43,785 bases of DNA, taken from assembly GCA_023150535.1 (NCBI GenBank), contig JAKLKS010000004.1:1-43785 (forward strand), read 5' to 3'. Positions 15,940 through 31,525 of the stretch are shown piece after piece (the first letter of the stretch is position 1; each line of letters opens with the position of its first letter). Position numbers and translations under genes: made by a program. The stretch comes from Planctomycetota bacterium (lineage in GTDB: Bacteria > Planctomycetota > JAJSAM01 > JAKLKS01). The notes beneath the pieces are model-generated. The model was not told the DNA's origin. It did no database searches and was given only the letters and a program-made list of their open reading frames with translations.

Positions 15940-16881
15940 CTACCTCCTCCCCCGGCCCCGGAGGAAGAGGTCGGCGGTCAGGTTGATGGCGAAGGTCACG
16001 ACGAAGAGGAGGATCCCGATGGTGAACAGCGCCCGGTAGTGGTCCGACCCGTCCGCCGTCTCGCCCAGCTCGGCCGCGATGGTGGCCGTGAGGGCCCGGA
16101 CCGAGTCGAAGACGCTGGTGGGGACGTTGATGGAGTGGCCGCTCGCCATGAGGACGGCCATGGTCTCCCCGAACCCCCGGCCGACGCCGAGGAGGACGGC
16201 CGCGACGAGGCCGTTGCGGGCCGCGGGGAGGACCACCCTCACCACCACCTGGAGGCGGGAGGCGCCCATGGCCTCGGCGGCCTCCCGGTAGGTGTCCGGG
16301 ACCGCCTTGAGGGCGTCCTCCGCGAGGGTGGTCATGATGGGAGTCGCCATGAGGCCCAGGATGATGCCCGAGTTGAGGACCCCGAGGCCCACGGGCACAT
16401 CGAACACGGAGATGATCGCGGGGTTGACCACGGTCAGCCCGACGAAGCCCCAGACCACGGAGGGCACGGCCGCCAGGAGCTCCACGAGCACCTTGAGGGT
16501 CTCGCGCGTCCTCCCCCGCGCGAACTCGGCGATGTAGATCGCCGCCCCCAGGGAGAAGGGGACCGCCAGCAGCATCGCGAGGCCGGTGACGCTGGCCGTC
16601 CCCGCCATGAGGGCGAGGATGCCGTAGGTCGGGTAGTCGGAGGTGGGCCGCCAGGCCGTGGACCCGAAGAACTCCCCCGGGCGGAAGGGGCCGGTGAGGA
16701 AGCCGAGCCCCTCCTTCCCGATGAAGACGAAGATCCCGAAGATGAAGACGATGGCGGAGATCCCGCCCGCGAAGACCAGGACGCGGACCCCCATGTCCAC
16801 GTACCAGGCGAGGTCCCGGCGGTCGGGAGGTCCGGCCGCCGCGTCCCCGGGGCTCCCGGAGGGCCTATCCTGCGTGCTCAC
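15940..16881 (-). CDS. pstC: Phosphate ABC permease PstC (short form)
   Basis: ELLAAVPSVVWG, AEDALKAVP, GRGFGETMAV, TATIAAELGE. Confidence 0.92.
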   Translation of the reverse strand: MSTQDRPSGSPGDAAAGPPDRRDLAWYVDMGVRVLVFAGGISAIVFIFGIFVFIGKEGLGFLTGPFRPGEFFGSTAWRPTSDYPTYGILALMAGTASVTGLAMLLAVPFSLGAAIYIAEFARGRTRETLKVLVELLAAVPSVVWGFVGLTVVNPAIISVFDVPVGLGVLNSGIILGLMATPIMTTLAEDALKAVPDTYREAAEAMGASRLQVVVRVVLPAARNGLVAAVLLGVGRGFGETMAVLMASGHSINVPTSVFDSVRALTATIAAELGETADGSDHYRALFTIGILLFVVTFAINLTADLFLRGRGRR

Positions 16882-17947
16882 CGCAGAGGGTCTCCATGAG
16901 GCCCCGGATGCGGTAGGCCAGCCGGCGGCAGATCTCCTCGTTCCGGTCGCCCCCGGCCGCCTCGGCGGCGAGGACCTCCCGGTGCCAGTCCAGGAAGACG
17001 GTGCCGTAGGGCAGGTGCTCGACCCGCCGCAGCGCGTCCGGCGCCAGGCCCACGACCACGTCCACCTCGCGCAGGTCCTCGTGGGAGGTCGCGAGCCTCC
17101 GCGGCGCCGCGGCGGGGCTTCCGAGCCCGCGGGCGTCCATGAAGGCGAGGACGGCCGGGTCCGCCCCGGGGGCCGGGTCCCAGCCCGCCGAAGCGTAGGA
17201 GGCCCCCTGGGGGAAGGCCTTGCGGGCGACGGCCTCCGCCAGGAGGCTCGCCCCGGCGTTGCGGTCGTCGATGAAGAGGATGCGGAAGGCGCGCGCCCGC
17301 TTCACCTCCCCCGTCACCGCGAAGATGGTCTCCTCGCAGATGTTCTTGGCCTGGTCGGCGATCCGCTCCAGGCGGCCGAGGATGACCAGGAACGCGAAGG
17401 TGTCCCGCACGGGGATGTCACGGGATTCCGCCTCGGCCAGGAGGTCCCGGTACACCTTCCGGTACACCGTGTCGTTCTGCGTCTCCATGGCCATGGTGCC
17501 GCGGGCGAGGTCGGGGCTCTGCTCGTGGAACGCCTTGAGCGACTGGCGGAGGACGGACCTCGCCTGCTCCGCCATCATCTCGATGTCGCGGGCCACCGTG
17601 ACCGGCGTGGGGGAGGTGCTCTGGACGGCCTCCCGGGAGATGGAGACGGCGTAGTCCCCCACGCGCTCCAGGGCGACGCTCAGGCGAAGGACCGCCGAGA
17701 TGGTGCGTAGGTGGCCGGCGCTGGGAAGGTGGCGGACGACGAAGGCGTGGCAGAGGCGGTCCAGCTCCCGGGTCGCCCGGTTCACGGGCTGGTCGCCGAG
17801 GATGGTCTCCGAGGCGAGGTTGCGGTCCCGCTCCAGGAAGGCCCTCACGGCGGAGCCGAGGGCGGCGTCCAGCAGGAGTCCGAGGGCCGCCACCTTCTCC
17901 CGGAGGACCTGGAGGTCCCTTCCCAGCCGCTCCTCGTAGTGGGTCAC
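16865..17947 (-). CDS. phoU: PhoU fused to a C-terminal degenerate LMW-PTP/ArsC-like domain
   Basis: GTG at 17947 with RBS GGAGGAG; PhoU motifs LERVGDYA and LERIADQAKNICE; C-terminal RILFIDDRNAGASLLAEA...SAG...DW. Confidence 0.85.
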   Translation of the reverse strand: MTHYEERLGRDLQVLREKVAALGLLLDAALGSAVRAFLERDRNLASETILGDQPVNRATRELDRLCHAFVVRHLPSAGHLRTISAVLRLSVALERVGDYAVSISREAVQSTSPTPVTVARDIEMMAEQARSVLRQSLKAFHEQSPDLARGTMAMETQNDTVYRKVYRDLLAEAESRDIPVRDTFAFLVILGRLERIADQAKNICEETIFAVTGEVKRARAFRILFIDDRNAGASLLAEAVARKAFPQGASYASAGWDPAPGADPAVLAFMDARGLGSPAAAPRRLATSHEDLREVDVVVGLAPDALRRVEHLPYGTVFLDWHREVLAAEAAGGDRNEEICRRLAYRIRGLMETLCGEHAG

Positions 17948-17967
17948 GGGCTCCTCCCCGGGGGCCC

Positions 17968-18840
17968 CTACCTGCCGCCCAGGGGGCGGACGGGGGCGTA
18001 CCCCTTGTCCTGGATGATGCGCTGGCCCGCGTCCGAGAGGATCCAGTCGAGGTAGGCGCGGACCTCCCCGGCCGGCTGCCCGCGGGTGTACATGAACAGC
18101 GGCCGCGCGATGGGGTAGGTGCCGTCCAGGGCGGTGGACACGGTCGGGGCGACGCCGGGCTTCCCCTCGCCCCCGGAGACCTTGAGGACCCGGACCTTGT
18201 CGGATTCGTAGGCGAGGCCGCTGAACCCGATGGAACCCGGGGTGCGCGCCACGAGATCCACCACGTCCTTGGAGCCCTGCATGTCGAGGGAGCCCAGCGC
18301 GTACTCCCGCTTCCCGAGGACGGCCTCCTTGAAGTACTCGTAGGTGCCGGAGTTGTTCTGGCGGCTCACCCGGACGATCTTCCCCCCCTCGGCGCCGGGT
18401 ACGGTCACCCCGAGGTCCTCCCAGCGGGCGATCTTCCCTCCCTCGCCGTAGATCTCGGCCAGCTGGGCCAGGGTGATGGACTCCAGGGGATTCGAGCGGT
18501 GCACGTAGACCGCGAGGGCGTCGTGGCCGACCACGAACTCGACGGGCTCGATGCCCTTCGCCTTCGCCTGGGCGCGTTCGGAATCCTTGAGCGAGCGGCT
18601 CGAGTTGGCGATCTCCACGTTCCCGTTGATGAGCGCCGAGATGCCGACCCCGGATCCGCCCCCCGTCACCGAGACGGCGACCTCCGGCTTCACGTCCCGG
18701 TAGCGCTCCGCCCATGCCTGGGCGACGTTGACGAGGGTGTCCGAGCCCTTGTTCTGGATGGCGGCGCGGTTCGAGGACCTCCCCCCGCAGGCGGGGACGA
18801 GGAGGCAGAGGGCGAGGGCGGCGGCGAGGGCGCGGTTCAC
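17968..18840 (-). CDS. pstS: Phosphate-binding lipoprotein
   Basis: GTG start with RBS AAGGAGG; lipobox LLVPAC; NKGSDT, GGGSGVG, SRQNNSGT, YPIARPL. Confidence 0.93.
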   Translation of the reverse strand: MNRALAAALALCLLVPACGGRSSNRAAIQNKGSDTLVNVAQAWAERYRDVKPEVAVSVTGGGSGVGISALINGNVEIANSSRSLKDSERAQAKAKGIEPVEFVVGHDALAVYVHRSNPLESITLAQLAEIYGEGGKIARWEDLGVTVPGAEGGKIVRVSRQNNSGTYEYFKEAVLGKREYALGSLDMQGSKDVVDLVARTPGSIGFSGLAYESDKVRVLKVSGGEGKPGVAPTVSTALDGTYPIARPLFMYTRGQPAGEVRAYLDWILSDAGQRIIQDKGYAPVRPLGGR

Positions 18841-19103
18841 GGGGCCTCCTTCCCTTCCGGGAACAACACCGCCTTTGCATAACCCTTGTCGGCGGGCCGC
18901 ACAAGGTCCAACCGGGGGGCGGGAGGGACGGGGTCGCGCGGGCCCCGACGGGGACGGGAGCCCGCCATCTCCGGGGGGAGACGGCCGGCGGCAGTGCCGC
19001 CTTCGGGAGGGAAGGCCCCCCGGGGGGCGCCCCTCCCCCCGTGCCGGCGGCGGCACGGAAGGGGGAGCCGAGGAGGCCCGTGGTTGGCCGGGGGCCCGCT
19101 CTC

Positions 19104-19144
19104 TTGACGACATCTTTGCGGAGCGGCAACCCCTCGTTCAAGAT
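19104..19144 (+). promoter_or_regulatory. Possible Pho-box-like repeats upstream of porin 1
   Basis: TTGACG(19104), TTTGCG(19115), GCAACC(19126) in 11-bp phase. Confidence 0.35.
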
Positions 19145-19187
19145 CGAGGGGATCCTCCGGCGGGGACACCCCAGGGAGTGGAACGCC

Positions 19188-20585
19188 ATGCGCATCGCCG
19201 CCGCCGGCCTCGCCGCCGCGCTCTGCCTGCAGCCCGCCGCCCTCGCCGCCGACCCCGCCGACGGGGCCCCTCCGAAGACGGAGACGGAGAGGAGGCTCGA
19301 GGAGGTGCTCGCCGAACTGGAGCGCCAGCGCCTGGAGATCGACGGCCTCAAGGCGAAATTGGCGACGGTGGAATCCGGGGCCGGCGTCGAGGCCGTGGTC
19401 GCCCGGTACCTCGAGGACGCGGCGAAGGAGGCGAAGAAGGAGCCGTCGAAGGACGACTTCCGCGTCTTCTGGAAGGACACCCTCAGCTTCGAGACCGCGG
19501 ACAGGGCCGTGACGCTCAAGATCGGCGGCCGCGTCCACTACGACATGGTCTTCCCCGACGCCGACGACGACGTCGAGGCGGCCCGGGGGGACTACGACGC
19601 GACGGCCGGCGCCCGCCGCCTCCGCATGGAGTTCGGCGGGACCCTCTTCGGCACCGTCTACTTCCAGAACAGCGTGGAGTTCGCCGGCACCTCCTACGCG
19701 TGGAAGGACAACTACTTCGGCCTCAGGGGCCTCCCCCTCGGCCTGGACTTCCGGGCCGGGTACTTCAAGGAGCCCTTCAGCCTCGAGCAGGTGACCAGCA
19801 GCAACTTCACCACCTTCCAGGAGCGCTCCTCCGTGGACGTCTTCGCCCCCGCCTTCAACCACGGGGCCATGGTCTCGGGGACCGCCGTCGAGAACCGGGC
19901 GTGGTGGTGGGCCGGGGACTTCTGGGACGGCTCCACCGGCACCGCCCCCATGAACCACAATTTCACCGGCCGGATCGCCGGCCTTCCCTATTTCGAGAAG
20001 GAGGACGCCGCCCTCGTCCACCTCGGCCTCTCCGTCTCCGACCGCAGCCCCGAATCGGAGACCCACCGCTACCAGCAGCGCCCCGAGGCCCCCTTCGTCC
20101 CCCGCCTCGTGGACACGGGGACCTTCTCCGTGGACGACCGGACGCTCCTGGGGTTCGAGGGCGCCTGGGTGATGGGGCCCTTCTCCGCGCAGGCGGAGTG
20201 GATGCAGGCGTCGAACTCCTCCCACCCCGACGCCGGCCCGGCCGGGGGCGACCCCGACTACCGGGGGTGGTACGCCTACGTCTCCTGGTTCCCCACGGGC
20301 GAGAGCCGCGCGGAGGGGTACTCGAAGGGCGCCTTCGGCCGCATCCGCCCGAAGGAGAACTGGGACGGCAAGGGCGGGATGGGGGCCTGGGAGGTGGCGC
20401 TGCGCTACTCGGTCCTCGACCTCGACGACGACGGCGTGGACGGCGGGGTCATGGACTCCTGGACCCTGGGGGTCAACTGGCACCTCAACCCCAACGCGAG
20501 GGTCATGATCAACTACGTGATGTCGAACCTCCACCGCGTGGGGGACGTCGACACCGTGGAGGTCCGCTTCCAGGTCTGCTTCTAG
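19188..20585 (+). CDS. Phosphate-selective porin, OprO/OprP family (paralog 1)
   Basis: Signal peptide, coiled-coil N-terminus, RRLR, GYFKEPFSLE..TSS, ERS, TGESR, GVNWHLN, C-terminal Phe. Confidence 0.88.
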   Translation: MRIAAAGLAAALCLQPAALAADPADGAPPKTETERRLEEVLAELERQRLEIDGLKAKLATVESGAGVEAVVARYLEDAAKEAKKEPSKDDFRVFWKDTLSFETADRAVTLKIGGRVHYDMVFPDADDDVEAARGDYDATAGARRLRMEFGGTLFGTVYFQNSVEFAGTSYAWKDNYFGLRGLPLGLDFRAGYFKEPFSLEQVTSSNFTTFQERSSVDVFAPAFNHGAMVSGTAVENRAWWWAGDFWDGSTGTAPMNHNFTGRIAGLPYFEKEDAALVHLGLSVSDRSPESETHRYQQRPEAPFVPRLVDTGTFSVDDRTLLGFEGAWVMGPFSAQAEWMQASNSSHPDAGPAGGDPDYRGWYAYVSWFPTGESRAEGYSKGAFGRIRPKENWDGKGGMGAWEVALRYSVLDLDDDGVDGGVMDSWTLGVNWHLNPNARVMINYVMSNLHRVGDVDTVEVRFQVCF

Positions 20586-20688
20586 CCCGCCGGGCGCGGT
20601 CCGCGCGCGCCCCGCGGCGCCCCGCCGCGGGGCGCCCCGGTTCCGGGGGACCCCCCGCCGCCGCGGTGTGACCGGACGCGCAATCACA

Positions 20689-20717
20689 TGGACATATCCG
20701 CATACATGGGGGATGAT
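20689..20717 (+). promoter_or_regulatory. Sigma70-like promoter of the ars operon; AT-rich spacer may be the ArsR operator
   Basis: TGGACA-N17-GATGAT, then 6 nt to GTG at 20724. Confidence 0.5.
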
Positions 20718-20723
20718 GGGCCC

Positions 20724-21098
20724 GTGGCGACCCTCGACGACGCCGTCCGGATCGGGAAGGCCCTGTCGGACCGCACCCGCGTGCGGATCCTGGCCGCCCT
20801 GACCGTCCGGCCCCTCTGCGTCTGCGAGATCACCGCCCTCGTCCCCGCGGGGCAGCCGGCCGTGTCCCGCCACCTGGGGATCCTGCGCGCCGCGGGGCTC
20901 GTGGAGGACGTCCGCGACGGGAGGTGGGTCAACTACCGGCTCCGCCGGGTCGACCGCCGCCTCCTCGCCGGCGCCGCCCTCCGGTGCCTCTCCGCGGGCC
21001 TCGCGGGCGATCCCGACCTGCGCGGGGTGCGCGACCGCGCGAGGACCGTGTGCCGCACCAGGCTCCGAGCGCCCCCCCGGCGGAGGGCCCTCCCTTGA
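20724..21098 (+). CDS. arsR: ArsR/SmtB family repressor with alpha3 CVC site
   Basis: KALSDRTRVRIL, PLCVCEI, QPAVSRHLGILRAAGLV, RDGRWVNY; start could alternatively be 20688. Confidence 0.88.
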   Translation: MATLDDAVRIGKALSDRTRVRILAALTVRPLCVCEITALVPAGQPAVSRHLGILRAAGLVEDVRDGRWVNYRLRRVDRRLLAGAALRCLSAGLAGDPDLRGVRDRARTVCRTRLRAPPRRRALP

Positions 21099-21129
21099 TG
21101 GCCCCCGGATCCCCGGGGGAGGAGGCCCC

Positions 21130-21387
21130 GTGCCCGTCTACGTCGAGGTGTTCGGCCCCGGCTGCGCGAAGTGCGAGGAGTCGGCGAAGGTGGCGGCGAA
21201 GTTCCTCGCCGACCGGCGGATCCCGGGAGAGGTCGTCAAGTTCAAGGACGTGAACAGCATGGCGTCCCGGGGCATCCTGCGGACGCCGACGGTCCTCATC
21301 GACGAGGAGAGGGTGGTCGAGGGGCGGGTCCTCCGGGAATCCGACCTGGACGCCTGGCTGCGGCGCCACCCGGAGGCGGCGCGGTGA
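21130..21387 (+). CDS. Small thioredoxin-like protein (MTH895/ArsE, Thioredoxin_3 type)
   Basis: GPGCAKC, TP motif, GRV; 85 aa; RBS GGAGG. Confidence 0.85.
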   Translation: MPVYVEVFGPGCAKCEESAKVAAKFLADRRIPGEVVKFKDVNSMASRGILRTPTVLIDEERVVEGRVLRESDLDAWLRRHPEAAR

Positions 21388-21827
21388 CCCCCCGCTCCGC
21401 CGCCGCGCTGGCGGGGCTCGTCGTCCTCGTGGCGGGGCTCGCGGTCTACCGGGAGTCGCGCCGGGAGGGCCCGGGCCCCGCTCCAGGCTCCCCCCCCGCC
21501 GCCGCCCCGGCCCCCGCCCCCTCCGCCGCCCCCGCGCCCGCCCCCCTCCCCCGGGTGCTCGACTTCGGCCGGGACACCTGAGCCTCCTGCAAGCGGATGA
21601 AGCCGGTTCTGGAGGAACTGGCCCGGAGGCACGAGGGGAAGGTGGAGGTCCGCATCGTGGACATCCGCGAGCCCGCGGGGGAGGAGCTCGCGAGGACCCA
21701 CCGCGTGAACCTCATCCCGACCCAGGTCCTGCTGGACGCGGCGGGGAGGGAGCGGTTCCGCCACGAGGGGTTCCTCCCCCTGGAGGACCTGGAGGCGGAG
21801 CTGGCGAGGCTCGGATGGACCCGCTGA
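21384..21827 (+). CDS. Membrane-anchored thioredoxin, predicted selenoprotein (UxxC; Sec at TGA 21579-21581)
   Basis: GTG overlapping the upstream stop; TM anchor, Pro/Ala linker, LDFGRDT-U-ASC-KRMKP then in-frame IPTQVLLD..G.E.FRHEG. Confidence 0.85.
21602..21622 (+). promoter_or_regulatory. Bacterial SECIS-like hairpin
   Basis: GCCGGUUC/GAACUGGC stem, UGGAG loop starting 28 nt after the UGA. Confidence 0.7.
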
Positions 21828-22540
21828 TCCTCCTCGCCGCCGCCTCGGAGGAGGGCCTGGCGGAGACGGTGCGCCGGCTCCTGGCGGAGTCCCCCTGGCT
21901 CGCCCCTGGGGCGGTGTTCCTCGGGGGGGTGCTCACGGCGCTCAATCCCTGCGTGCTGGCGACGCTCCCCCTGGTGGTGGCCTTCGTCGGGGGGCGGAGG
22001 GACGCGACCTCCGCGGGCCGGGGGATCGCGCTCACCCTCGCCTTCGTCGGGGGGCTCTCCGCGTCCTTCGCCGCCCTCGGCGTCGCCGCCGCGCTGACGG
22101 GGCGCCTGCTCGGGGACGCGGGGAGGTTCTGGGACTACGCGATCCTCGTCGTCTGCCTCGCCATGGGGGTCCACCTGACGGGGCTCCTCGAGGTCCCGCT
22201 CCCGAACTGGACCGTGACGCCCCGCTGGAGGGGCCTGCCGGGGGCGGCGGCCCTCGGCGCGCTCTTCGGCGCCGTCTCGACCCCCTGCGCCACGCCCATC
22301 CTCGTCGTCGTCATGGCCTACGTGGCCTCCTCGGGGGCGAGCCTCGCCTGGGGGGCGTTCCTCCTGTTCGTCTACGCGCTGGGGCACAGCCTTCTCCTCT
22401 TCGCCGTGGGGGCGTCCGCCGGCGCGGCGCGCACCCTCCTCGAATCCCCCCGTCTCGCCCTGGCCGGGCGGCGGCTCCGGCAGGGGGCCGGGATCCTCAT
22501 CGCCGCCGTCGGCGTCTGGGTCTTCCTCTCGAGGTCCTGA
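21815..22540 (+). CDS. CcdA/DsbD-beta family transmembrane disulfide reductant (ArsG-like)
   Basis: About 6 TM helices with LNPCVL and TPCATP. Confidence 0.85.
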   Translation: MDPLILLAAASEEGLAETVRRLLAESPWLAPGAVFLGGVLTALNPCVLATLPLVVAFVGGRRDATSAGRGIALTLAFVGGLSASFAALGVAAALTGRLLGDAGRFWDYAILVVCLAMGVHLTGLLEVPLPNWTVTPRWRGLPGAAALGALFGAVSTPCATPILVVVMAYVASSGASLAWGAFLLFVYALGHSLLLFAVGASAGAARTLLESPRLALAGRRLRQGAGILIAAVGVWVFLSRS

Positions 22541-22543
22541 ACC

Positions 22544-23713
22544 ATGTCCGAGCGCGCGAAGCTCCTCCTCCTCGCCGGCGTCTTCCTCGCCTGCTGGGCC
22601 ACCCCCTTCGGGGAGCCCCGTGTCCAGGGGGCGATCCTCGAGGGATTCCGCCTCCTCGGGGACTACGCCCGCGAGCACGTGATCCTCTGCCTCGTCCCGG
22701 CGCTCTTCATCGCCGGGGGGATCGTGGTCTTCCTCTCCCAGGGCGCGGTGATGCGGTACCTCGGGGCGAAGGCGGACCGGGTCGTGGCCTACGCCGTGGC
22801 CTCGGTCTCCGGGGGGATCCTGGCCGTCTGCTCCTGCACCGTCCTGCCGCTCTTCGCGGGGATCTACCGCCGCGGCGCCGGGCTCGGGCCCGCGACCTCC
22901 TTCCTGTACTCGGGACCGGCCATCAACGTGCTGGCCATCGTCCTGACGGCGCGGGTGCTCGGGTGGGAGATCGGCCTCGCCCGGGGCCTCGGGGCGATCC
23001 TGTTCGCGGTCGTCATCGGGCTGTCCATGGGGGCGCTCTTCCGCGGGGAGGAGGAGGAGCGGATCGAGAACGGCCCCGACCCCTTCGCGGCGGAGGGGGA
23101 GGCCGGGATCGGCCGGGCGGCCGCCATCCTCGGGGCGATGGTCGGCCTCCTCGTCTTCGCCAACTGGTCGAGGCCGGCGGAGGCCGGGGGGGTCCTCCAC
23201 GCCGTCTGGACCGTGAAGTGGTGGCTCGCCGGGGCCTGCCTCGCGGCCACGCTCCTCCTGGCCTGGAAGCGGTACGGCGCGGAGGAGCGGAGGACCTGGG
23301 TCGAGGAGACCTGGACCTACGCGAAGATGATGCTCCCGCTCCTGCTGGCCGGCGTCCTCGTCTCCGGCTTCCTCCTCGGCCGCCCCGGCGAGGACGCGGG
23401 CATCGTCCCCGAGCGCTGGATCCGGGACCTCGTCGGGGGGAACTCCCTGGCCGCCAACTTCTTCGCGGCGCTCTTCGGCGTCCTCATGTACTTCGCCACG
23501 CTCACCGAGGTCCCCATCCTCCAGGGGCTCATCGGGTCCGGCATGGGGCAGGGGCCGGCGCTGGCGCTCCTCCTCTCCGGACCGGCCGTCTCCCTCCCGA
23601 GCCTGCTGGTCATCCGCGGCGTGCTCGGGACGAGGAAGACCCTCGCCTACGCGGGGCTCGTCCTCGTCTTCTCGACCCTCGCGGGGTGGATCTACGGGGG
23701 GCTGGCGGGCTGA
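22544..23713 (+). CDS. DUF318/ArsP-family permease (organoarsenical efflux type)
   Basis: REHVILCLVPA, LAVCSCTVLP, SGPAIN, MYFATLTEVPI, GPAVSLPS. Confidence 0.85.
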   Translation: MSERAKLLLLAGVFLACWATPFGEPRVQGAILEGFRLLGDYAREHVILCLVPALFIAGGIVVFLSQGAVMRYLGAKADRVVAYAVASVSGGILAVCSCTVLPLFAGIYRRGAGLGPATSFLYSGPAINVLAIVLTARVLGWEIGLARGLGAILFAVVIGLSMGALFRGEEEERIENGPDPFAAEGEAGIGRAAAILGAMVGLLVFANWSRPAEAGGVLHAVWTVKWWLAGACLAATLLLAWKRYGAEERRTWVEETWTYAKMMLPLLLAGVLVSGFLLGRPGEDAGIVPERWIRDLVGGNSLAANFFAALFGVLMYFATLTEVPILQGLIGSGMGQGPALALLLSGPAVSLPSLLVIRGVLGTRKTLAYAGLVLVFSTLAGWIYGGLAG

Positions 23714-24020: not shown

Positions 24021-24324
24021 GCCGAGGACTCGCCCCCCTTCCCCCTTCCGGCGGGCCGTGAGGCGGAGGCAACGGCCTCTCCCATCAACGGAGATTGGGG
24101 GTTAATCCAAACGGGTGCAGGGAATTTCCCCCTCCGACCGGGCTTCCTCCCCAAACCGAACTCGCGACCACTCGCCCGTCACCCCGGTTCCTTGCCGGGC
24201 GTCAATCTCCCCCCGCGGGGCCCGTCGGTTGCTGGGCGACTTCGCCAGTCCGCAATCGGAGCTCCGGCCCGTGAGCCGGATGAGGATGCGGTGCAGCCTT
24301 GGGCCGCTGCAGGGAGGGCGAGGA

Positions 24325-25278
24325 ATGAAGCCATCGGGAGAAGAGTCCGGCCTCCTGTCACGCAGGGGGCTCCTCGTGGGTGCCGCATGCGCCGGCGTCG
24401 GGGCCGCCGTCGGAGGCATCGCCGCCGCCGGGGCCCCGGCGGAAGAGGCAGGCGGTCCCGCCCCCCCGGTGCCCGAGGGACCGGGCGAGACCCTCCGGAT
24501 GCTCCGGGACCTCCGAAGGGCCCTCGCCAGGAAGCCGGAGGAGCGGCGCTGGGGGATGGTCATCGACACGCGCCGGTGCATCGGGTGTCACGCCTGCACG
24601 GTCGCCTGCGTCGCCGAGAACAACCTGCCCTCGGGGGTGACCTACAGGAGGGTCTTCGAGGACTCCTACGGGGACTACCCCGACGTCCGGACCTCCTTCA
24701 TGCCCACGAACTGCATGCAGTGCGAGAAGCCCCCCTGCGTGGAGGCTGCCAACCGCGTCGTCCCCGGGGCCATGGGGAGGACGGTCGAGGGCGTCGTGAC
24801 GATCGACTACGCGAAGATGAAGGGACGCGAGGTGTTCGAGGTGGCCCGGAAGGCATGCCCCTACACGGCCCTCTACCTCGACGAAGGTCGGAACCACACG
24901 GACGGGACGCCCGCCGTTCAGGACTACGAGACGCGACCCGTCCCCGAGTACGGGAGGACCTGGACCCGCGGGGAGACGAAGGGCTCGACGAGGAAGTGCC
25001 ACTTCTGCCTGCACAGGGTCGATGCCGGACGCCTCCCTGCCTGCGTGTCCACCTGCACGGGGCTCGCCATGCAATTCGGGGACCTGGCCGATCCGAAAAG
25101 CCTCGTCTCCGAGAGGGTCGCCACGGGAGCCTGCCGGAGGCTCCATCCGGACAAGGGGACGAGCCCCCGCGTCCACTTCCTGGACGACTGGCCTGCCGAG
25201 GACGAGAAGGAGGCACCGCCCCCCCTCTCCAACCGTCCACGTCAGGACTGCTTGCGGTGCCACGAGTTCGGCCGGTGA
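24325..25278 (+). CDS. Tat-exported Fe-S subunit (TtrB/NrfC/DmsB family), predicted three clusters plus C-terminal CxxCH
   Basis: SRRGLL Tat motif; CIGCHACTVAC, CMQCEKPPCVEAA, KACPY, KCHFC..PACVSTC; ends DCLRCHEFGR. Confidence 0.85.
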   Translation: MKPSGEESGLLSRRGLLVGAACAGVGAAVGGIAAAGAPAEEAGGPAPPVPEGPGETLRMLRDLRRALARKPEERRWGMVIDTRRCIGCHACTVACVAENNLPSGVTYRRVFEDSYGDYPDVRTSFMPTNCMQCEKPPCVEAANRVVPGAMGRTVEGVVTIDYAKMKGREVFEVARKACPYTALYLDEGRNHTDGTPAVQDYETRPVPEYGRTWTRGETKGSTRKCHFCLHRVDAGRLPACVSTCTGLAMQFGDLADPKSLVSERVATGACRRLHPDKGTSPRVHFLDDWPAEDEKEAPPPLSNRPRQDCLRCHEFGR

Positions 25279-25319: not shown

Positions 25320-28300
25320 ATGCCCAAGAACAGAGGCGGCTTGCCAGACGAGTTCCGGGACTCCCGCCGGGGGTTCCTCGCCGGGGCCGCGCTCGCCGCC
25401 GGAAGCGCCGTCGCCTCGACCAGGGCAGCGGTCGCCCTCGCTGGCGAGGAGAAGGCCCCGCCGGCATCGCCCCCGGGAGGTCTCCCGGATGCCGACATCC
25501 GCACCGTGTGTCTGCAGTGCAACACGGGGTGCGGCATCCGCGTCCACACGCGCAACGGGAGCGCCGTCAAGATCGACGGGAACCCCTACAGCCCGTGGAC
25601 CATGGTGCCCTCGCTCCCCTACGCGACCCCCCTGGCGCAGTCTTCCCTCGTCGAGGGCTCTCTGTGTCCGAAGGGGCAGTCGGGGATCCAGACGGCCCAC
25701 GACCCCTACCGCGTGACCTCGGTCCTGAAGCGCTCCGGACCCCGGGGTTCCAACCGCTGGGAGACCGTCCCCTTCGACAAGGCCCTCGAGGAGATCGTGG
25801 AGGGCGGACGCCTCTTCGCGAAGGTCCCGGGTGAGGAAGGGCGCGAAGTCGCGGGGCTCCGGTCGCTGTTCGCGCTCCGCGACCCGAAGGTCGCCAAGGA
25901 GATTTCGGACGCCGTCTCCGCCCTGCGGAAGAAGAAGGCCCCGGACGACAGGAAGAAGGCCCTGGCGGAGTTCCGCGAGAAGTTCGCCGACCACCTCCAG
26001 GCCCTGATCGACCCCGACCACCCCGACTTCGGCCCCAGGAACAACCAGTTCGTGTTCGCATGGGGGAGGCTCAAGGGAGGGAGGTCGGAGTTCATCAAGC
26101 GGTTCGTGTCGGACTCCTTCGGATCCGTGAACGCCCACGGACACACGACGGTGTGCCAGGGCTCCCTCTACTTCACCGGGAAGGCCATGAGCGACCAGTT
26201 CTCGGAGGGCAAGTTCACCGGCGGCGGCAAGGCCTACTGGCAGGCCGACACGGCGAACGTGGAGTTCCTCATCGCCATCGGCTCGGCCTACATCGAGGGC
26301 GGCTACGGCCCCACCCACCACGCCCGCAAGCTCATGGCCAACCTCGTCGAGGGGAAGGTCAAGATCGCGGTCGTGGACCCGAGGTTCTCGAAGATCGCCG
26401 CCAAGGCCTGGAAGTGGGTCCCCGCGAAGCCCGGGACCGAGGGGGCGCTGGCCCTCGGCATGATCCGCTGGATCCTCGACAACGGGCGCCACGACGCGAA
26501 GTTCCTCTCCGCGGCGAACAAGGCCGCCGCGAAGGCGGCCGGCGAGTCCACGTGGACCAACGCCGCGTGGCTCGTGAAGGAGGACGGTTCTCTGCTGCGC
26601 GCATCGGAGATCGACATCGACGACAAGAGGAAGAAGAAGGCCGCGACCGGGCCCGATTGGGAACTCGACCCCTTCGTGGTGCTGCAGGGCGGGACTCCCC
26701 GGGCGGTGGACCCCGACGACGACTCCATGGCGATCACCGGGGACCTCCTCTTCACGGGGGAGGTCTCCGGGATCCGGGTGAAGACCTCCCTCCAGATCCT
26801 CCGGGAGTCGGCCAACTCCCGGACGCTCGCGGAGTGGGCGGCCCTCTGCGGGTTGGAGCCCTCCGTCCTCGAGGAACTGGCGCGGGAGTTCACCTCCCAC
26901 GGGAAGCGCGCCGTGGCGGACCTGCACCGGGGGGCCTCCCAGCACACCAACGGCTTCTACAACGTGCTGGCGATCTACAGCCTGAACGCCCTCGTCGGGA
27001 ACTTCGACTGGAAGGGCGGGCTCCTGAAGGCGACCACCTTCGACCACGCGGGCGGGAAGCCCGGGCAGCCCTACCCCCTCGCGAAGCTCCACCCCGCCAA
27101 GGCGGTCCCCTTCGGCCTCTCCGTCATCCGGCACGAGGCCTCCTACGAGGAATCGACGGTCTTCTCGGGGTACCCGGCGAAGCGCAACTGGTACCCGTTC
27201 GCGAGCGACATCTACCAGGAGATCATCCCGTCCATCGGGGACGCCTATCCCTACCCGGCGAAGGCCCTGTTCCTCTACATGGCCAATCCCGCCTACGCGT
27301 TGCCCGCGGGGAACACCAACATCGAGGTCCTCGCGGACCCGTCGAGGCTCCCCCTGGTGGTGGCCTGCGACATCACGATCGGCGAAACCACCCTCTACGC
27401 GGACTACGTGTTCCCCGACACCGGGTACCTCGAGCGGTGGGAGTTCCAGGGCAGCCACCCCTCCATCGCCGAGAAGGTCCAGCCGATCCGCAACCCGGCC
27501 ATCGCCTCGCCCAACGGGACCGTCCGGGTCTTCGGCGAGGAGATGCCCCTGTCCCTTGAGGCCATGCTGATCGGACTGGCGGCGAAACTCGGCCTCCCCG
27601 GCTACGGACCGGACGGCCTCGGGAAGGAACTTCCGCTCGCCCGGGCCGAGGACGTGTACCTCAAGATGGCCGCCAACGTGGCCTCCGGAGACGGGCCCGG
27701 GGAAGCGCTCCCGGAGGCCGACGACGCGGAGGTCGCCGCCTTCCTGGAGGCGCGGAAGCACCTTCCCGCGACGGTCTTCGACGCGGAGCGATGGAAGAAG
27801 GCCGCGGGCGAGGCCCACTGGAAGAGGGTGGTGTACGTCCTCAACCGGGGCGGGAGGTTCCAGGACAGCGAGAAGGCGTTCTCCGGGGAGAAGTTCGCCA
27901 ACAAGTACGGGAAGACGCTGAACCTCTACCTGGAGAAGGTGGCCCGGGCCAAGTCGGCGATGTCGGGGAAGCCCCTCGCCGGGGTGGCGGCCTACTTCCC
28001 CGTGGCGGACCTCCTCGGGAAGCCCGTCCCCGGCTCGGGGGATCCCGACGCCCTGACCCTCATCACCTACCGGGTCATCACCCAGACCAAGTCGCGGACC
28101 GTCGCCAACGACTGGCTGACGCAGGTCCAACCGTCGAACGAGATCCTGGTGAACTCCGCCGATGCGAAGAGGCTCGGGATCGCGAAGGGACAGCGCGTCC
28201 GCGTCGTCTCCGCGAGCAATCCGCGCGGGGTCTGGGACCTCCGGAACGGCACCGAGAAGCCCATGGTGGGTGCGGTCTCGGTCACCGAGGGCCTGCGCCC

Positions 28301-28526
28301 GGGCGTCGTGGCCTTCTCCCTCGGCAAGGGCCACTGGGCCTACGGTTCGTCGGACGCCTGGATCGACGGGAAGAGGATCCCCGGGGACCCGCGCCGCGCT
28401 GCGGGCGTCCACGCCAACGCCGCCATGGCGGTGGACCCGCACCTGAAGAACACGTGCCTCGTGGACCCCATCGGCGGGAGCGTGTCCTTCTACGACAGTC
28501 CCGTGCGCCTCGTCAAGGAGGGGTAG
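25320..28526 (+). CDS. Molybdopterin oxidoreductase catalytic subunit, tetrathionate reductase (TtrA/SrdA)-like
   Basis: SRRGFL Tat motif; CLQCNTGC...CPKG FS0 motif; GNPYSP, HTTVC, YADYVFPD..YLERW; 1068 aa. Confidence 0.85.
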   Translation: MPKNRGGLPDEFRDSRRGFLAGAALAAGSAVASTRAAVALAGEEKAPPASPPGGLPDADIRTVCLQCNTGCGIRVHTRNGSAVKIDGNPYSPWTMVPSLPYATPLAQSSLVEGSLCPKGQSGIQTAHDPYRVTSVLKRSGPRGSNRWETVPFDKALEEIVEGGRLFAKVPGEEGREVAGLRSLFALRDPKVAKEISDAVSALRKKKAPDDRKKALAEFREKFADHLQALIDPDHPDFGPRNNQFVFAWGRLKGGRSEFIKRFVSDSFGSVNAHGHTTVCQGSLYFTGKAMSDQFSEGKFTGGGKAYWQADTANVEFLIAIGSAYIEGGYGPTHHARKLMANLVEGKVKIAVVDPRFSKIAAKAWKWVPAKPGTEGALALGMIRWILDNGRHDAKFLSAANKAAAKAAGESTWTNAAWLVKEDGSLLRASEIDIDDKRKKKAATGPDWELDPFVVLQGGTPRAVDPDDDSMAITGDLLFTGEVSGIRVKTSLQILRESANSRTLAEWAALCGLEPSVLEELAREFTSHGKRAVADLHRGASQHTNGFYNVLAIYSLNALVGNFDWKGGLLKATTFDHAGGKPGQPYPLAKLHPAKAVPFGLSVIRHEASYEESTVFSGYPAKRNWYPFASDIYQEIIPSIGDAYPYPAKALFLYMANPAYALPAGNTNIEVLADPSRLPLVVACDITIGETTLYADYVFPDTGYLERWEFQGSHPSIAEKVQPIRNPAIASPNGTVRVFGEEMPLSLEAMLIGLAAKLGLPGYGPDGLGKELPLARAEDVYLKMAANVASGDGPGEALPEADDAEVAAFLEARKHLPATVFDAERWKKAAGEAHWKRVVYVLNRGGRFQDSEKAFSGEKFANKYGKTLNLYLEKVARAKSAMSGKPLAGVAAYFPVADLLGKPVPGSGDPDALTLITYRVITQTKSRTVANDWLTQVQPSNEILVNSADAKRLGIAKGQRVRVVSASNPRGVWDLRNGTEKPMVGAVSVTEGLRPGVVAFSLGKGHWAYGSSDAWIDGKRIPGDPRRAAGVHANAAMAVDPHLKNTCLVDPIGGSVSFYDSPVRLVKEG

Positions 28527-28530: not shown

Positions 28531-28672
28531 GTGGTCGAGGGTCCGGCGGTGACCGGCGGGAGGGGGGGACCCTCGGAGCCCCGTTGGCATCTGCCGTCGG
28601 GGAGGGAATCCCCGGGAGGGGCTCGATGGCCCCGCCATCCCGCAAGGGCGTCGCCCGGCGGGATCCCCTCCC
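28531..28672 (+). repeat. ~140-bp inverted repeat, right copy
   Basis: Starts 5 nt after the molybdoenzyme stop codon; matches the reverse complement of 23879-24020. Confidence 0.9.
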
Positions 28673-28741
28673 GGGCCGACCGCCGCCGCGCCGGGGCCGC
28701 CCCGGGGACCTTCCCAGGGGCGGCTCGATTCCCGGGCCAGG

Positions 28742-28796
28742 TTCTGCGGCCCCCTTGCCCCGTCTTCACGGAGCCCTCACGGGGCTCCCCCATCAT
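28742..28796 (+). promoter_or_regulatory. 30-bp repeat copy 2, containing Pho-box-like units, and -10 of porin 2
   Basis: CTTGCC(28754), TTCACG(28765), CTCACG(28776); CATCAT 9 nt later. Confidence 0.5.
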
Positions 28797-28871
28797 CCAG
28801 TCCACGTCCGGAGGCGCAGGGGGCCCACAGGGCAGGGCCCATCGCCCCGGAGACCTTCCAGGAGGAACAGC

Positions 28872-30272
28872 ATGAAGCGCATCGCAGGCGGGCTCGCCCT
28901 CGCGGCCGGCCTCCTCGCCTCGGCCCCCGGCGCCTTCGCCGCGGACGCCGCCGGCGGGAAGACCGAGGCCGAGAGGCGTCTCGAGGAGGTCCTCGCCGAG
29001 CTCGAGGCCCAGCGCCTCGAGATCAACGGACTCAAGTCGCAGCTCGCCGTCGTCCAGGGCGGGTCGGGCATCGAGGCGCAGGTGATGAAGTACCTCGCCG
29101 CCGACGAGGCGAAGAAGACGGACGCCTCCAAGGACGACTTCCGCGTGTTCTGGAAGGAGGGCCTCAACTTCCAGACCGCGGACAAGGCCTTCCACCTCAA
29201 GGTGGGCGGCCGGATCATGTACGACATGGTCTTCCCCGACGCCGACGACGACGTCGAGGCGAAGGCCGGCGACTTCGACGCCCTCTCCGGCTTCCGCCGC
29301 CTGCGCGTCGAGTTCGAGGGGACGATCTTCAAGAACGTCTTCTACAAGAACGTCATCGACTTCTCCGACACCGGCTACGCCTACAAGGACAACCTCATCG
29401 GGTTCTCCGGCCTGCCGGCCGTGGGCAACTTCCAGGTGGGCTACTTCAAGGAGCCGGTGGGCCTCGAGGAGCTGACCTCCAGCAAGTACATCACCTTCAC
29501 CGAGCGCTCCATCGCCACGAACGCCTTCGTCCCGGCCCACAACCACGGCTTCCAGTTCTTCAACAACTACCAGGACGGCGACATCACCTGGGCGGTGGGC
29601 GACTTCTGGGACGGCGGCACCGGCGCCGCGCGCGTGGAGCACGGCTTCTCCGGCAGGGTCACCTGGGTGCCCTTCAAGAACAAGGACGACGGCACCCTCT
29701 TCCACGTCGGCGGGTCGGCGCAGCTCCGCAGCCCCGACGCCGAATCCGACCGCTTCCGCGCCCGGCCCGAGACCCCCTTCACGCCCCGGACCCTCGACAC
29801 GAAGGTGATCTCCGTGGACAACGAGACCATCCTCGGCCTCGAGGGCGCCTGGGTGATGGGGCCCTTCTCGGTCCAGGGCGAGTACTACCGGGCCTCCATC
29901 GACGGCCACCCGGACGTGGCGGGCTCCCCGGACCCCGAGTTCTCCGGCTTCTACCTCGCCGGCTCCTACTTCCTGACCGGCGAGTCCCGCCCCTACAAGA
30001 ACGGGACCTTCGGCCGCGTCAAGCCGAAGACGACCTTCGAGGGCGAGACCCTCGGCGGCGCCTTCGAGGTCGCGCTCCGGTACGCCAAGGTGGACCTCGA
30101 CGACGACGGCGTCCAGGGCGGCGTCGCCAGCGACTGGACGGTGGGCCTCAACTGGTACCTCAACACCAACACCCGCGTCATGCTCGACTTCGTGCTGCAC
30201 GAGGTCCGCTGGGACTCGGACACGGAGGGGGACGTGAAGTCCGTGGTCCTGCGCTTCCAGGTCGACTTCTAG
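28872..30272 (+). CDS. Phosphate-selective porin, OprO/OprP family (paralog 2)
   Basis: RBS AGGAGG; signal peptide; FRRLR, GYFKEPVGLEELTSS, TGESRPY, GLNWYLN, C-terminal Phe. Confidence 0.88.
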   Translation: MKRIAGGLALAAGLLASAPGAFAADAAGGKTEAERRLEEVLAELEAQRLEINGLKSQLAVVQGGSGIEAQVMKYLAADEAKKTDASKDDFRVFWKEGLNFQTADKAFHLKVGGRIMYDMVFPDADDDVEAKAGDFDALSGFRRLRVEFEGTIFKNVFYKNVIDFSDTGYAYKDNLIGFSGLPAVGNFQVGYFKEPVGLEELTSSKYITFTERSIATNAFVPAHNHGFQFFNNYQDGDITWAVGDFWDGGTGAARVEHGFSGRVTWVPFKNKDDGTLFHVGGSAQLRSPDAESDRFRARPETPFTPRTLDTKVISVDNETILGLEGAWVMGPFSVQGEYYRASIDGHPDVAGSPDPEFSGFYLAGSYFLTGESRPYKNGTFGRVKPKTTFEGETLGGAFEVALRYAKVDLDDDGVQGGVASDWTVGLNWYLNTNTRVMLDFVLHEVRWDSDTEGDVKSVVLRFQVDF

Positions 30273-30312: not shown

Positions 30313-30424
30313 CGATCCGGCGAATTCAAGGCGGGGTTCCGGGTTCCTCCGCCGGCCGGTTCCGAAGCCCATGCCCTGTGCGCGGACCCGCGCCGGTCAC
30401 CGTTCCGGGGACTCCGCCGACAAC

Positions 30425-30456
30425 GACGCCCCGCGGCCGCGAGGCCGCGGGGCGTC
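30425..30456. repeat. Perfect 14-bp stem with GCGA tetraloop
   Basis: GACGCCCCGCGGCC-GCGA-GGCCGCGGGGCGTC. Confidence 0.7.
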
Positions 30457-30530
30457 CGCATTTCCCCCGCCCCATCCCTCGGAGGCCCGCCCGGCGGGAT
30501 GGTAGGCTCCTCCCGTCGGGAGGGCGGTGC

Positions 30531-31525
30531 ATGGTCCGACGCACGCTGACGGTCCGGGACGTCCTCGGCGCCACCTCCTACCACGGAGCGCGGGTCCTGC
30601 TGGCCGCGGCCTCGCTGGGGGTCTTCGAGGCCCTCGCGGGCCGCCGCGCCACCCCCGCCGCCGTCGCCCGCCGCATCGGGGCGGACCCCGGGGCGGTGGA
30701 GCGCCTCCTCGTCGCGCTCGTGGGGATGCACCTCCTCGAGCGGGAGGGGCGCCGGGTCCGCCTCGCCCCGGGGGCCCGGGAACTCCTCACCGAGGGGGGG
30801 GAGTTCTCCCTGTCCGATCTCCTCCGCCACAGGGCCGCCCGGTTCAAGGCCTGGGCCCAGCTCGAGGACAGCGTGCGCACGGGGAAGCCGGTGGTGGTGG
30901 CGGGGGACGGGGCCGAGGATCCCCTCGCCCTGCAGGCCGCCCGCGCGCGCCGCGACTCCGCCCGCCGCTGGGCCCCGGTCCTGGCCAACTTCCTGGACCT
31001 GGGGAGCGCGAAGTCGCTGCTCCTGCTCGGGGACGGGCCGGCGGTCCACGCCCACCACTTCGCCCGGACCCACCCCCGGCTGGCCATCACCGTCCTCGAC
31101 ACCCCGGCCTCCGTCGCGGTGGGGAGGGAGTACCTCGCCGGGAAGGCGGAGGCGGCCCGCATCCGCCTCGTCCCCGGGGACCCCTGCGGGACGACCTGCC
31201 GGAGGGGCGGTTCTCCGCGGCCTTCCTCTCCGACGCGCTCCACTCCTTCTCCCTGGAGGACGCGCGGAGGCTCCTGCGGAGGGTGCGGCGGTCCCTGAAG
31301 GCGGGAGGACTCCTCGTGGTGCGGGACCGGTTCCTCGACGATCGCGGGCCGGGCCCCCTGGAGAACGCCCTCTACGACGTCCAGCTCCTCCTGACGACGA
31401 GGGAGGGGCGCTGCCACTCCCTCAAGGAGGTGGAGGCGGCGGTCCGGGCCGCGGGCTTCGGGAAGATCCGGGCGGCCGACCCGGGGCTCTCGGACCCGAC
31501 GAGGATCCTCACGGCGCGGGCCTGA
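30531..31525 (+). pseudogene. O-methyltransferase (dimerisation + Methyltransf_2) with a one-base frameshift at the C-run near 31181
   Basis: N-terminal AASLGVFEAL...ERLLVAL; the C-terminal DALHSF...LKAGGLLVV...EGRCHS lies in another frame; adding one C restores it. May be a sequencing error. Confidence 0.7.

Follow-up and report, generated by a model that had tools for sequence, protein, structure and literature searches.

A putative selenocysteine-containing, membrane-anchored thioredoxin encoded in a CcdA-associated gene cassette of a Planctomycetota bacterium

The thioredoxin-like gene and its in-frame TGA codon

The subject of this study is a thioredoxin-like gene located at positions 21384-21827 (forward strand) of contig JAKLKS010000004.1 from a Planctomycetota bacterium (assembly GCA_023150535.1), of which positions 1 to 43,785 were analysed; this whole stretch of 43,785 nucleotides is referred to below as the window. 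The gene is a single reading frame of 148 codons, with a GTG start codon that is conserved among orthologues and a terminal TGA (21825-21827). Judged from the translation, the Pfam matches, an AlphaFold model and the conserved start, it is a putative selenoprotein gene whose product would be a membrane-anchored thioredoxin-like protein of 147 residues. A Shine-Dalgarno-like GGAGG (21372-21376, forward strand) can be read from the sequence 7 nt 5' of the GTG. The start codon overlaps the stop codon of the upstream gene (TGA, 21385-21387, in the tetranucleotide GTGA), and the ATG (21815) of the downstream ccdA gene lies within the end of the thioredoxin gene, with an overlap of 13 nt. The genes of the cassette around it are thus tightly coupled.

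The frame contains two TGA codons, namely the terminal one and an internal one at 21579-21581 (forward strand), and it is free of other stops and of frameshifts. The internal codon is embedded in GAC ACC TGA GCC TCC TGC AAG and the corresponding peptide is D-F-G-R-D-T-U-A-S-C-K-R-M-K-P-V-L-E-E-L, where U denotes the proposed selenocysteine (Sec). This residue, number 66, occupies the first position of the motif U-A-S-C and aligns with the first Cys of the CxxC motif of thioredoxins. The TGC codon at 21588-21590 (forward strand) encodes residue 69, the putative resolving Cys, which is at least 90% conserved in an alignment of 25 sequences (A1) and invariant in two others (the 7-sequence alignment A2, and A3). 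A mechanical list of open reading frames (ORFs) cuts the gene into 21171..21581 (in the frame of 21384) and 21597..21827 (76 aa). An earlier note on this DNA had pointed to this split, had placed the TGA at the first Cys of the CxxC motif and had stated that the thioredoxin frame goes on beyond it. All three points stand, as the list gives the two pieces, homologues have Cys at this position and the Pfam thioredoxin match spans the TGA. If the codon is read as proposed, an annotation is corrected in which gene callers cut this protein in two.

The translation begins with a hydrophobic N-terminus, followed by a Pro/Ala-rich linker and the thioredoxin (Trx) domain; the layout comprises a transmembrane (TM) helix at about residues 3-27, the linker at residues 28-56 and the Trx fold at residues 57-142. 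With Cys substituted for U, matches were found to the Pfam families Thioredoxin (PF00085; 37.4 bits against a cut-off of 23.5) and Thioredoxin_2 (PF13098; 39 bits against 27), both covering residues 57-140 and spanning the TGA. An AlphaFold model built with 25 aligned sequences (mean predicted local distance difference test score of 92.5) has a long helix at its N-terminus (3-27), then a Pro/Ala linker in extended form and a beta-alpha-beta-alpha-beta-beta-alpha thioredoxin fold, in which U66 immediately precedes a helix (67-82). The best structural matches of the model in the PDB are ordinary thioredoxins with a root-mean-square deviation (rmsd) of about 1.1 A (e.g. 1nsw_A, E = 4.5e-08, rmsd 1.2 A over 87 columns), and a sequence search of the PDB agrees with this result. 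Residues P112 and T113 of the I-P-T loop are invariant in alignment A1, and the former is presumably the cis-Pro of thioredoxin. The product is therefore best described in terms of a prediction, i.e. a Trx-fold oxidoreductase with a U-A-S-C active site, which is predicted to be tethered to the membrane by the N-terminal TM helix and the Pro/Ala linker. Its scores were below the cut-offs of the thioredoxin equivalog TIGR01068 (39.3 vs 96.8 bits) and of three models of related small proteins: SaoT NF040730 (17 vs 65), the HUIPC-motif model NF047660 (12.6 vs 105) and PDO_seleno_TRX TIGR02187 (16.8 vs 185).

A hairpin that resembles a bacterial selenocysteine insertion sequence (SECIS), GCCGGUUCU-GGA-GGAACUGGC, was found at 21602-21622 (forward strand), inside the codons for K-P-V-L-E-E-L-A (AAG CCG GTT CTG GAG GAA CTG GC(C)). 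It may be drawn as GCCGGUUC-UGGAG-GAACUGGC, with a stem of 8 bp and a 5-nt loop or, alternatively, with a stem of 9 bp and a GGA triloop closed by U.G. The stem starts 20 nt past the UGA, and the distance from the UGA is 28 nt to the 5-nt loop and 29 nt to the triloop. This is the 8-bp stem with a UGGAG loop of the earlier note, in which the figure of 28 nt is measured from the UGA to that loop. The folding energy of the 21-nt hairpin is -11.9 kcal/mol (z = -4.5) and none of 200 shuffled sequences was as stable. According to the legend of Fig. 2 in PMC13188914, a bacterial SECIS has an apical loop of 3-9 nt and an upper stem of 4-16 bp. The same source gives a G within the first two loop positions, mostly as N1-G-[G|U]-N-N2 in which N1 pairs with N2, a spacing of 16-37 nt between UGA and loop and a minimum free energy of at most -7.5 kcal/mol. 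The hairpin agrees with all of these published values (a GGA or UGGAG loop, 8-9 bp, 28-29 nt, -11.9 kcal/mol), and U-GGA-G matches the N1-GGN-N2 pattern exactly. The previously proposed fit to the bacterial SECIS model is thereby upheld with respect to PMC13188914. An Rfam scan of 21300-21900 (E up to 10) yielded no bacterial SECIS family; its sole match, a flavivirus element on the opposite strand, was dismissed as a chance hit.

Selenocysteine decoding and its alternatives

The source genome (G000), assembled in 529 contigs and 88% complete, encodes the machinery for selenocysteine insertion, the presence of which the earlier note had named as a check of its claim. The scores of selA (489.8 bits vs 267.9), selB (293.8 bits, or 318.8 including a C-terminal piece, vs 242.25), selD (384.3 bits vs 125) and tRNA-Sec (80.2 bits vs an Rfam cut-off of 47) are all above the curated cut-offs, and ARAGORN reports the last as tRNA-SeC with the anticodon TCA. 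The selD gene itself carries an in-frame TGA in the context G-A-G-U-A-C-K (G000:C521:10378-11301, reverse strand), a site that we take to be the Cys/Sec position of SelD. Moreover, 5 of the 13 AhpC/TSA-family matches in the genome contain one in-frame TGA, each at the active-site position. These are located at C170:369-764 (reverse strand; L199), C101:6-176, C38:711-1058, C432:14894-15244 and C228:412-840, and their contexts are FTFV-U-ATE, TGG-U-TRE, TW-U-GPC (two genes) and SNT-U-GPF. The genes with W-U-GPC, on C38 and C432, are TlpA-like, and the SNT-U-GPF gene is deiodinase-like. The best match to formate dehydrogenase FdhA in the genome lacks an in-frame TGA, so this marker gave no support. 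The genome thus appears to be rich in Trx-fold selenoproteins. It is a Planctomycetota-like genome whose DNA occurs in runs labelled as activated sludge, and it has, on this evidence, at least seven Sec genes.

All six of the other in-frame-TGA genes (selD and the five AhpC/TSA genes) have a perfect stem of 7-8 bp with a G[GU]N triloop (GGC, GGA, GGA, GGU, GUU and GUG), which starts 20-36 nt from the U of the UGA. A rule derived from these six genes, which asks for 7 bp or more in the stem, a G[GU]N triloop and an offset of 18-38 for the start of the loop, applies to no more than 402 of the 52,119 TGA trinucleotides of the genome (0.77%) and to 0.75% of 40,000 random positions, and a stem of 9 bp or more, as in the thioredoxin gene, follows 69 of the 52,119 TGA sites. 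The hairpin thus exceeds what chance would give, although these frequencies are indicative, since the rule was set after the data had been viewed. Further Sec genes may be findable among the 402 sites that fit the rule. By comparison, the terminal TGA of the thioredoxin gene is followed by no hairpin. In the thioredoxin gene, the stem needs codons that are rare in the nine neighbouring genes, where GTT accounts for 4 of 281 Val codons and GAA for 18 of 200 Glu codons; the fixed A of GAA is paired with U29, which belongs to the Val codon GUU.

The position of the TGA was then compared among relatives of the protein. A protein search yielded 44 relatives; in those of full length, the aligned position is occupied by C-x-x-C. 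Among 80 titled genome loci (searched with alignment A2), 80 of 81 motif hits have Cys; the only Sec hit, L038, is apparently identical with the record G003 (see below), and L089 gave no motif. The picture is the same in 80 metagenome loci (searched with alignment A3), where Cys was present in 82 of 82 motif hits. The alignment with Cys homologues proposed in the earlier note therefore confirms that the TGA column is a Cys column.

The TGA itself is retained in close relatives. The order of the source genome comprises 17 genomes; in G001 (same genus, 75% identity) and G003 (another genus of the same family, 71% identity) the gene has exactly one TGA, at the same codon and in the same D-T-U-A-S-C context, and selA and tRNA-Sec are above the cut-offs in both genomes. 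The remaining matches in the order (G006, G008 and G015) are Cys forms, of which G006 and G008 come from genomes that also have Sec machinery. The thioredoxin query found nothing in G002 (89% complete) and G004 (98%), which also belong to the family. In a search of the phylum, 52 of 401 genomes had a match at E <= 1e-15 and, among the 63 match rows, four contain a TGA (G000, G001, G003 and G201) and one a TAA. The more distant form, G201, comes from a genome of a different family with 52% G+C and shares 43% identity; its Sec occupies the same column (L-G-S-K-G-U-M-S-C-K), with the TGA at the homologous codon (L206; G201:C133, about 2895-3194 of the contig, reverse strand), and a CcdA homologue is encoded directly downstream. 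Two database proteins, P0004 and P0005 (81 residues, 73-78% identical), begin with M-S-C-[KR]-[KR]-M-K, one residue past the expected Sec position. Judged from these first residues, they are probably truncated gene calls of further Sec forms, and databases appear to hold relatives only as truncated pieces.

The hairpin is identical in G000, G001 and G003. Among these three Sec forms, synonymous-site identity is 7/8 in the hairpin codons, 8/19 upstream and 30/45 further downstream, and the single synonymous change among the hairpin codons falls just outside the stem. The codon columns downstream of the hairpin comprise 31 identical, 15 synonymous and 21 non-synonymous ones. In G201, the hairpin core CGGUUCU-GGA-GGAACUG is identical and located at the same offset, despite a very different base composition. 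The closest Cys form, L118/L119 (equal to the P0003 protein), reads AAG CCC GTC CTC GAT CAA CTG and has no hairpin; the CcdA encoded beside it is 88% identical to that of the window, i.e. as close as those of G001 and G003. Of 148 distinct segments of Cys forms, 125 have a best stem of 0-2 bp, 20 one of 3-5 bp and 3 one of at least 7 bp. The support that the hairpin lends to Sec decoding is synonymous-site conservation and codon choice, not covariation.

These comparisons bear on the possibility that the gene is a pseudogene, in which a nonsense mutation turned the TGC or TGT of an ordinary CxxC thioredoxin into TGA and the downstream part is decaying. Such a view would accord with the Cys that nearly all homologues have at this codon, and with the treatment of the gene as truncated by gene callers, as seen in the starts of P0004 and P0005. 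Yet the TGA has been kept, with a conserved downstream domain, in three species-level genomes with 71-75% protein identity as well as in G201, and additional stops and frameshifts are lacking. Furthermore, synonymous sites of the hairpin are conserved, the genome has the complete Sec machinery and the downstream ccdA is translationally coupled to the real end of the gene. A pseudogene is hence very unlikely.

Another explanation is that two products are made, a membrane peptide of 65 residues ending at the TGA (21579) and a protein of 76 residues starting at the ATG at 21597. Both ORFs are present in the list, and in the absence of selenium, termination at the UGA is expected to yield a short N-terminal product. 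The 76-residue piece, though, would be devoid of strand beta-1 and of the whole redox motif of the Trx fold, no Shine-Dalgarno-like sequence was seen before 21597, and the ASCKR codons, which separate the TGA from the ATG, belong to the active site and are conserved as such. We consider this arrangement to be very improbable.

It may also be asked whether the TGA is read as Trp, Gly or Cys, by a changed code or by near-cognate readthrough, without selenium. When selenium is limiting, other bacteria have been reported to mis-insert Cys by way of tRNA-Sec. In this genome, though, TGA is an ordinary stop elsewhere: it ends 6 of the 9 confidently placed genes near the thioredoxin gene, the latter included, which rules out a global change of the code with TGA as a sense codon. 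In addition, the aligned residue of the homologues is Cys, the standard partner of Sec, and the other in-frame TGAs of the genome are at known Sec/Cys sites of SelD and peroxiredoxins. The insertion of another residue is thus extremely improbable.

An error of assembly or sequencing, or a rare variant among strains, might be feared as the source of the TGA in a fragmented, metagenome-type assembly of 529 contigs, but the probability of this is practically negligible, since contigs from four runs of four other studies have the same letters at 21579-21581 and the homologous codon is also TGA in three other genome assemblies. The 3.2-kb stretch around the gene was found in runs (i.e. those holding most of the stretch) from 8 studies, mostly labelled activated sludge. 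Logan contigs were compared from four of the runs, belonging to four studies other than the likely source: X4 record 23 (covering 21555-22100, 0 differences), X6 record 26 (21523-22100, 0 differences), X11 record 7 (21551-21878, 0 differences) and X12 record 9 (21100-21680, 7 differences). None of the listed differences falls at 21579-21581, and the TGC or TGT that would have spoken against the earlier note was found in none. A separate observation concerns the linker codons at 21474-21545, which are GC-rich and of low complexity and draw unrelated short contigs, with depth spikes to about 1,650; coverage at these positions is uninformative on the thioredoxin gene.

Consequently, the gene very probably encodes a real, mis-annotated selenoprotein, a thioredoxin with UxxC of a known kind, and a full-length Sec protein of 147 residues is, with high confidence, the best explanation as a whole. 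In the proposed mechanism, SelB and Sec-tRNA(Sec) would read the UGA at 21579 as Sec, directed by the hairpin at 21602-21622, which sits in the codons of helix alpha-1 (KPVLEELA). The case for this decoding is built on comparative and genomic evidence.

Several observations weigh against it and have to be set beside the above. The DNA comparison was made with contigs, not raw reads, and contigs drop rare variants. The 72-nt region is, overall, of ordinary stability (z = -1.02). The hairpin loop is at 29 nt, as against 17-23 nt in the five peroxiredoxin-like genes (it is at 33 nt in selD). The conserved peptide P-[VI]-L-E-E-L dictates much of the stem, a full hairpin is present in 3 of the 148 Cys forms, and there are no compensatory changes because the hairpin is invariant in the four Sec forms. 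In G201 (59% complete), neither selA (20.4 bits) nor tRNA-Sec (46.5 vs 47) reached the cut-off. Finally, the hairpin rule derived from the six other genes was set after the TGA genes of the genome had been viewed.

Origin of the selenocysteine form

The relationship between Sec and Cys forms was examined in a quick maximum-likelihood tree calculated with IQ-TREE (164 rows, 92 columns), which omits rows shorter than 75 residues, duplicates and L038, and in which many forks are unresolved. The three close Sec forms group with P0004 and P0005 (Shimodaira-Hasegawa-like approximate likelihood ratio test, 86), and the neighbours of this cluster, in a clade with a support of 98, are the Cys forms L118 and P0002. 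G201 is placed elsewhere in the tree, so a minimum of two changes of state is required by the well-supported branches. U-x-S-C is common to both Sec lineages, while the Cys forms mostly have C-I-P-C (71 of 82 metagenome motif hits).

SECIS-like hairpins of 10, 7 and 7 bp were also seen after the Cys codon in the Cys forms L114 (a metagenome-assembled genome of Dehalococcoidales), L053 and L065, respectively; these could be proto-SECIS elements or SECIS remnants. The three Cys segments whose stem reaches 7 bp or more all belong to the 78 segments coding for P-[VI]-L-E-E-L. The presence of U-x-S-C in both Sec lineages, the proto-hairpins in Cys forms and the two changes of state suggest repeated conversion of Cys to Sec, aided by a latent SECIS. 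As an alternative, the Sec form may have been transferred between lineages. The suggested conversion agrees with the general conclusion of PMC1794560, according to which rare selenoproteins arise from Cys ancestors in Sec-decoding hosts.

In the lineage of the source genome, Sec would have replaced Cys recently, and the change would have been easy as the conserved P-[VI]-L-E-E-L coding sequence was already most of a SECIS at the right distance. A wider proposal can be put forward only tentatively and is, in our judgement, rather doubtful in its entirety: the P-[VI]-L-E-E-L codons might constitute a latent SECIS, for which a single TGY-to-TGA change and 1-3 synonymous changes would suffice in any Sec-decoding host, Sec forms might have had at least two convergent origins (one in the family of the window and one in G201, with identical hairpin cores and with U-x-S-C instead of C-x-P-C), and they might serve as the selenium-dependent periplasmic arm of a relay/efflux cassette induced by metals or metalloids. 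If true, this would be a genuine link between selenium and arsenic, or between selenium and metals. The family is a compact natural test case for Cys-to-Sec conversion, and it offers a test of the advantage of a selenol in an extracytoplasmic reductase.

The gene cassette and comparison with known systems

The thioredoxin gene is the third of five genes. The first of these (20688-21098, forward strand) encodes an ArsR/SmtB metalloregulator (Pfam HTH_5, 5.1e-14; NCBIfam NF033788, 85 bits vs 55) with an L-C-V-C-E motif identified by eye. It is followed by a gene (21130-21387, forward strand) for a small thioredoxin-like protein of the MTH895/ArsE family (85 aa, CAKC; Pfam Thioredoxin_3, 7.1e-18; TIGR00412, 63.3 bits vs 62). 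Downstream of the thioredoxin gene are those of a transmembrane thiol-disulfide electron transporter of the CcdA/DsbD type (21815-22540, forward strand; Pfam DsbD_TM, 2.8e-21) and, as the last gene, of an ArsP_1-family permease (22544-23713, forward strand; 389 aa, with a C-S-C motif; Pfam ArsP_1, 8.2e-73), which scored below the cut-offs of the SO_0444 (110 vs 300) and SaoE (107 vs 325) models. When 80 genome loci from numerous phyla were searched by tblastn at distances of up to 3 kb from the thioredoxin homologue, CcdA was present in 66, the permease in 58, the small thioredoxin (Trx_3) in 56 and ArsR in 48; in 80 metagenome loci, which are often shorter, the respective counts were 43, 31, 32 and 14. 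The five-gene cassette is conserved across phyla.

This arrangement suggests a redox relay. The small cytoplasmic thioredoxin of the MTH895/ArsE type (21130-21387) would reduce CcdA (21815-22540), which would then reduce the tethered Sec-thioredoxin, the terminal member of the relay facing the periplasm. The selenol of the latter might attack a disulfide outside the cytoplasm or a thiophilic metal(loid) species whose handling is shared with the ArsP-family permease, and the ArsR/SmtB regulator (20688-21098) would switch on the whole cassette. The Trx domain is read as extracytoplasmic because of the signal sequences of homologues, several of whose N-termini look lipoprotein-like or cleavable (P0020, ...LLVACGG; P0030, ...VAAGC; P0008, ...PAFA; judged by eye), and because of its own TM helix with the Pro/Ala tether. 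That helix, on the other side of the balance, is flanked by charges at both ends, and the topology was judged by eye from the N-termini of homologues, both of which count against this location. On the whole, a periplasmic Trx domain in an ArsR/SmtB-induced relay from thioredoxin through CcdA to Sec-thioredoxin, working with the ArsP-family permease, seems somewhat more probable than not.

The further statement of the earlier note, that the operon is arsenic-responsive and links selenium with arsenic chemistry, was not established. By score, the regulator is a generic ArsR/SmtB protein, and acr3 and arsC lie on contig C42. The latter contig, another one of the genome, carries acr3 together with an arsC of the low-molecular-weight-phosphatase type (a strong LMWPc match). 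In the window, where the check for an arsenic-resistance operon (arsC, acr3/arsB) covered neither PF03960-type ArsC nor arsM, only a weak LMWPc domain was found. The ArsF (14.6 vs 60) and ArsG (26 vs 200) models also failed, and the naming of ArsE, ArsF and ArsG follows the names of the NCBIfam models. The molybdoenzyme encoded nearby is TtrA-like (480 bits vs a cut-off of 1750), not ArrA. A link between selenium and arsenic is supported only by association, through the similar genes in ars operons described below, and we regard it as a reasonable lead, not as a result.

Other features of the surroundings may be mentioned here. The cassette is flanked by two genes for phosphate-selective porins O/P, and this pairing might point to an oxyanion. 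The genes at 19041-20585, 24115-25278, 25320-28526 and 28584-30272 of the window (all on the forward strand) encode the porins O/P, a molybdopterin oxidoreductase and a 4Fe-4S subunit. The downstream molybdopterin oxidoreductase has a Tat signal and is closest to TtrA (at 480 bits, far under the cut-off), and the 4Fe-4S subunit is closest to models of the ArrB/DsrO/TtrB type. On the other side of the cassette, the ORF at 16865-19519 (reverse strand) encodes PhoU (TIGR02135, 138 bits), apparently with a C-terminal domain of the LMWPc/ArsC type; this LMWPc match (16910-17281) is weak (30.1 bits vs 23.2), and the Cys of its C-x5-R motif looks replaced (F-I-D-D-R-N-A-G-A-S, by eye). The N-terminal part of this long ORF is probably spurious, and Pst transporter genes adjoin it. 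At 30378-31525 (forward strand), an O-methyltransferase is apparently encoded in two frames, with the dimerisation domain in ORF 30378..31298 and the Methyltransf_2 domain in ORF 30527..31525, which suggests a frameshift or an assembly error.

Genes resembling this cassette have been described in connection with arsenic. Section 3.9 of PMC2963123 deals with genes for CcdA, for thioredoxin and for redox-active disulfide protein 2 inside ars operons of other organisms, and 8 instances of the redox genes in 7 organisms are given, 7 of them with arsC in the operon. As in that trio, the same redox genes are found here next to ArsR and an ArsP-family permease, in an order that is conserved in other genomes, and the small thioredoxin passes the MTH895/ArsE cut-off. 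In contrast to those ars operons, the arsC-type gene and acr3 are on another contig. The passages of PMC2963123 considered here make no mention of selenocysteine.

The cassette can also be compared with CcdA/DsbD-dependent periplasmic reductases, i.e. ResA, CcmG or TlpA with CcdA, and the gamma domain of DsbD. As in the CcdA-ResA/CcmG systems or in the beta and gamma domains of DsbD, a gene for the CcdA/DsbD core adjoins that of a membrane-tethered Trx-fold acceptor, and there is a weak alignment between the protein studied and the Trx part at the C-terminus of the DsbD-like TsoB model. Unlike these reductases, the present system has a putative Sec acceptor, a small cytoplasmic thioredoxin of its own, a permease and a metalloregulator, and has no link to genes of cytochrome c maturation.

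Among small selenocysteine proteins, SaoT, HUIPC and PDO_seleno_TRX share with the protein studied a thioredoxin-like character and a UxxC motif, but its scores are far under the cut-offs of these models. SaoT, in the account of it in a bioRxiv preprint (10.1101/2022.07.06.499078), is encoded beside SaoE, an efflux permease related to ArsP, whereas the other SAO genes of that system are not at this locus. Table 1 of PMC1794560 lists as selenoproteins a thiol:disulfide interchange protein, DsbA-like and DsbG-like proteins and a Prx-like thiol:disulfide oxidoreductase, and the UGC-containing TlpA family is among the selenoproteins named in PMC13188914. Like these extracytoplasmic oxidoreductases, the protein studied would be a rare Sec variant of widespread Cys-containing Trx-fold proteins in Sec-decoding bacteria, and both are thought to have arisen by Cys-to-Sec conversion. 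It appears to belong to another Trx subfamily than these oxidoreductases.

In the literature searched, i.e. that on bacterial and planctomycete selenoproteins and on CcdA, this subfamily was not found as a selenoprotein, although the large metagenome catalogues cited by a review of 2026 were outside the search and may already list it. The nearest relative in kind is the Sec-containing thioredoxin (Trx, PF00085, UxxC), which PMC13188914 counts among the characterised selenoproteins of prokaryotes and which also stands in Table 1 of PMC1794560. With it, the protein studied shares the Trx fold, the putative Sec at the first (nucleophilic) position of UxxC at the N-terminus of helix alpha-1, the existence of Cys-containing homologues and a bacterial SECIS-like element within the gene. 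It differs from that protein, and from classical thioredoxin, in its membrane anchor and Pro/Ala linker, in the absence of the first beta-alpha unit and in its location in a CcdA cassette, and its motif is U-A-S-C instead of the usual x-G-P-C type of thioredoxin. If its Sec decoding is correct, as appears very likely, a membrane-tethered, CcdA-linked thioredoxin is added to the list of Trx-fold selenoproteins.

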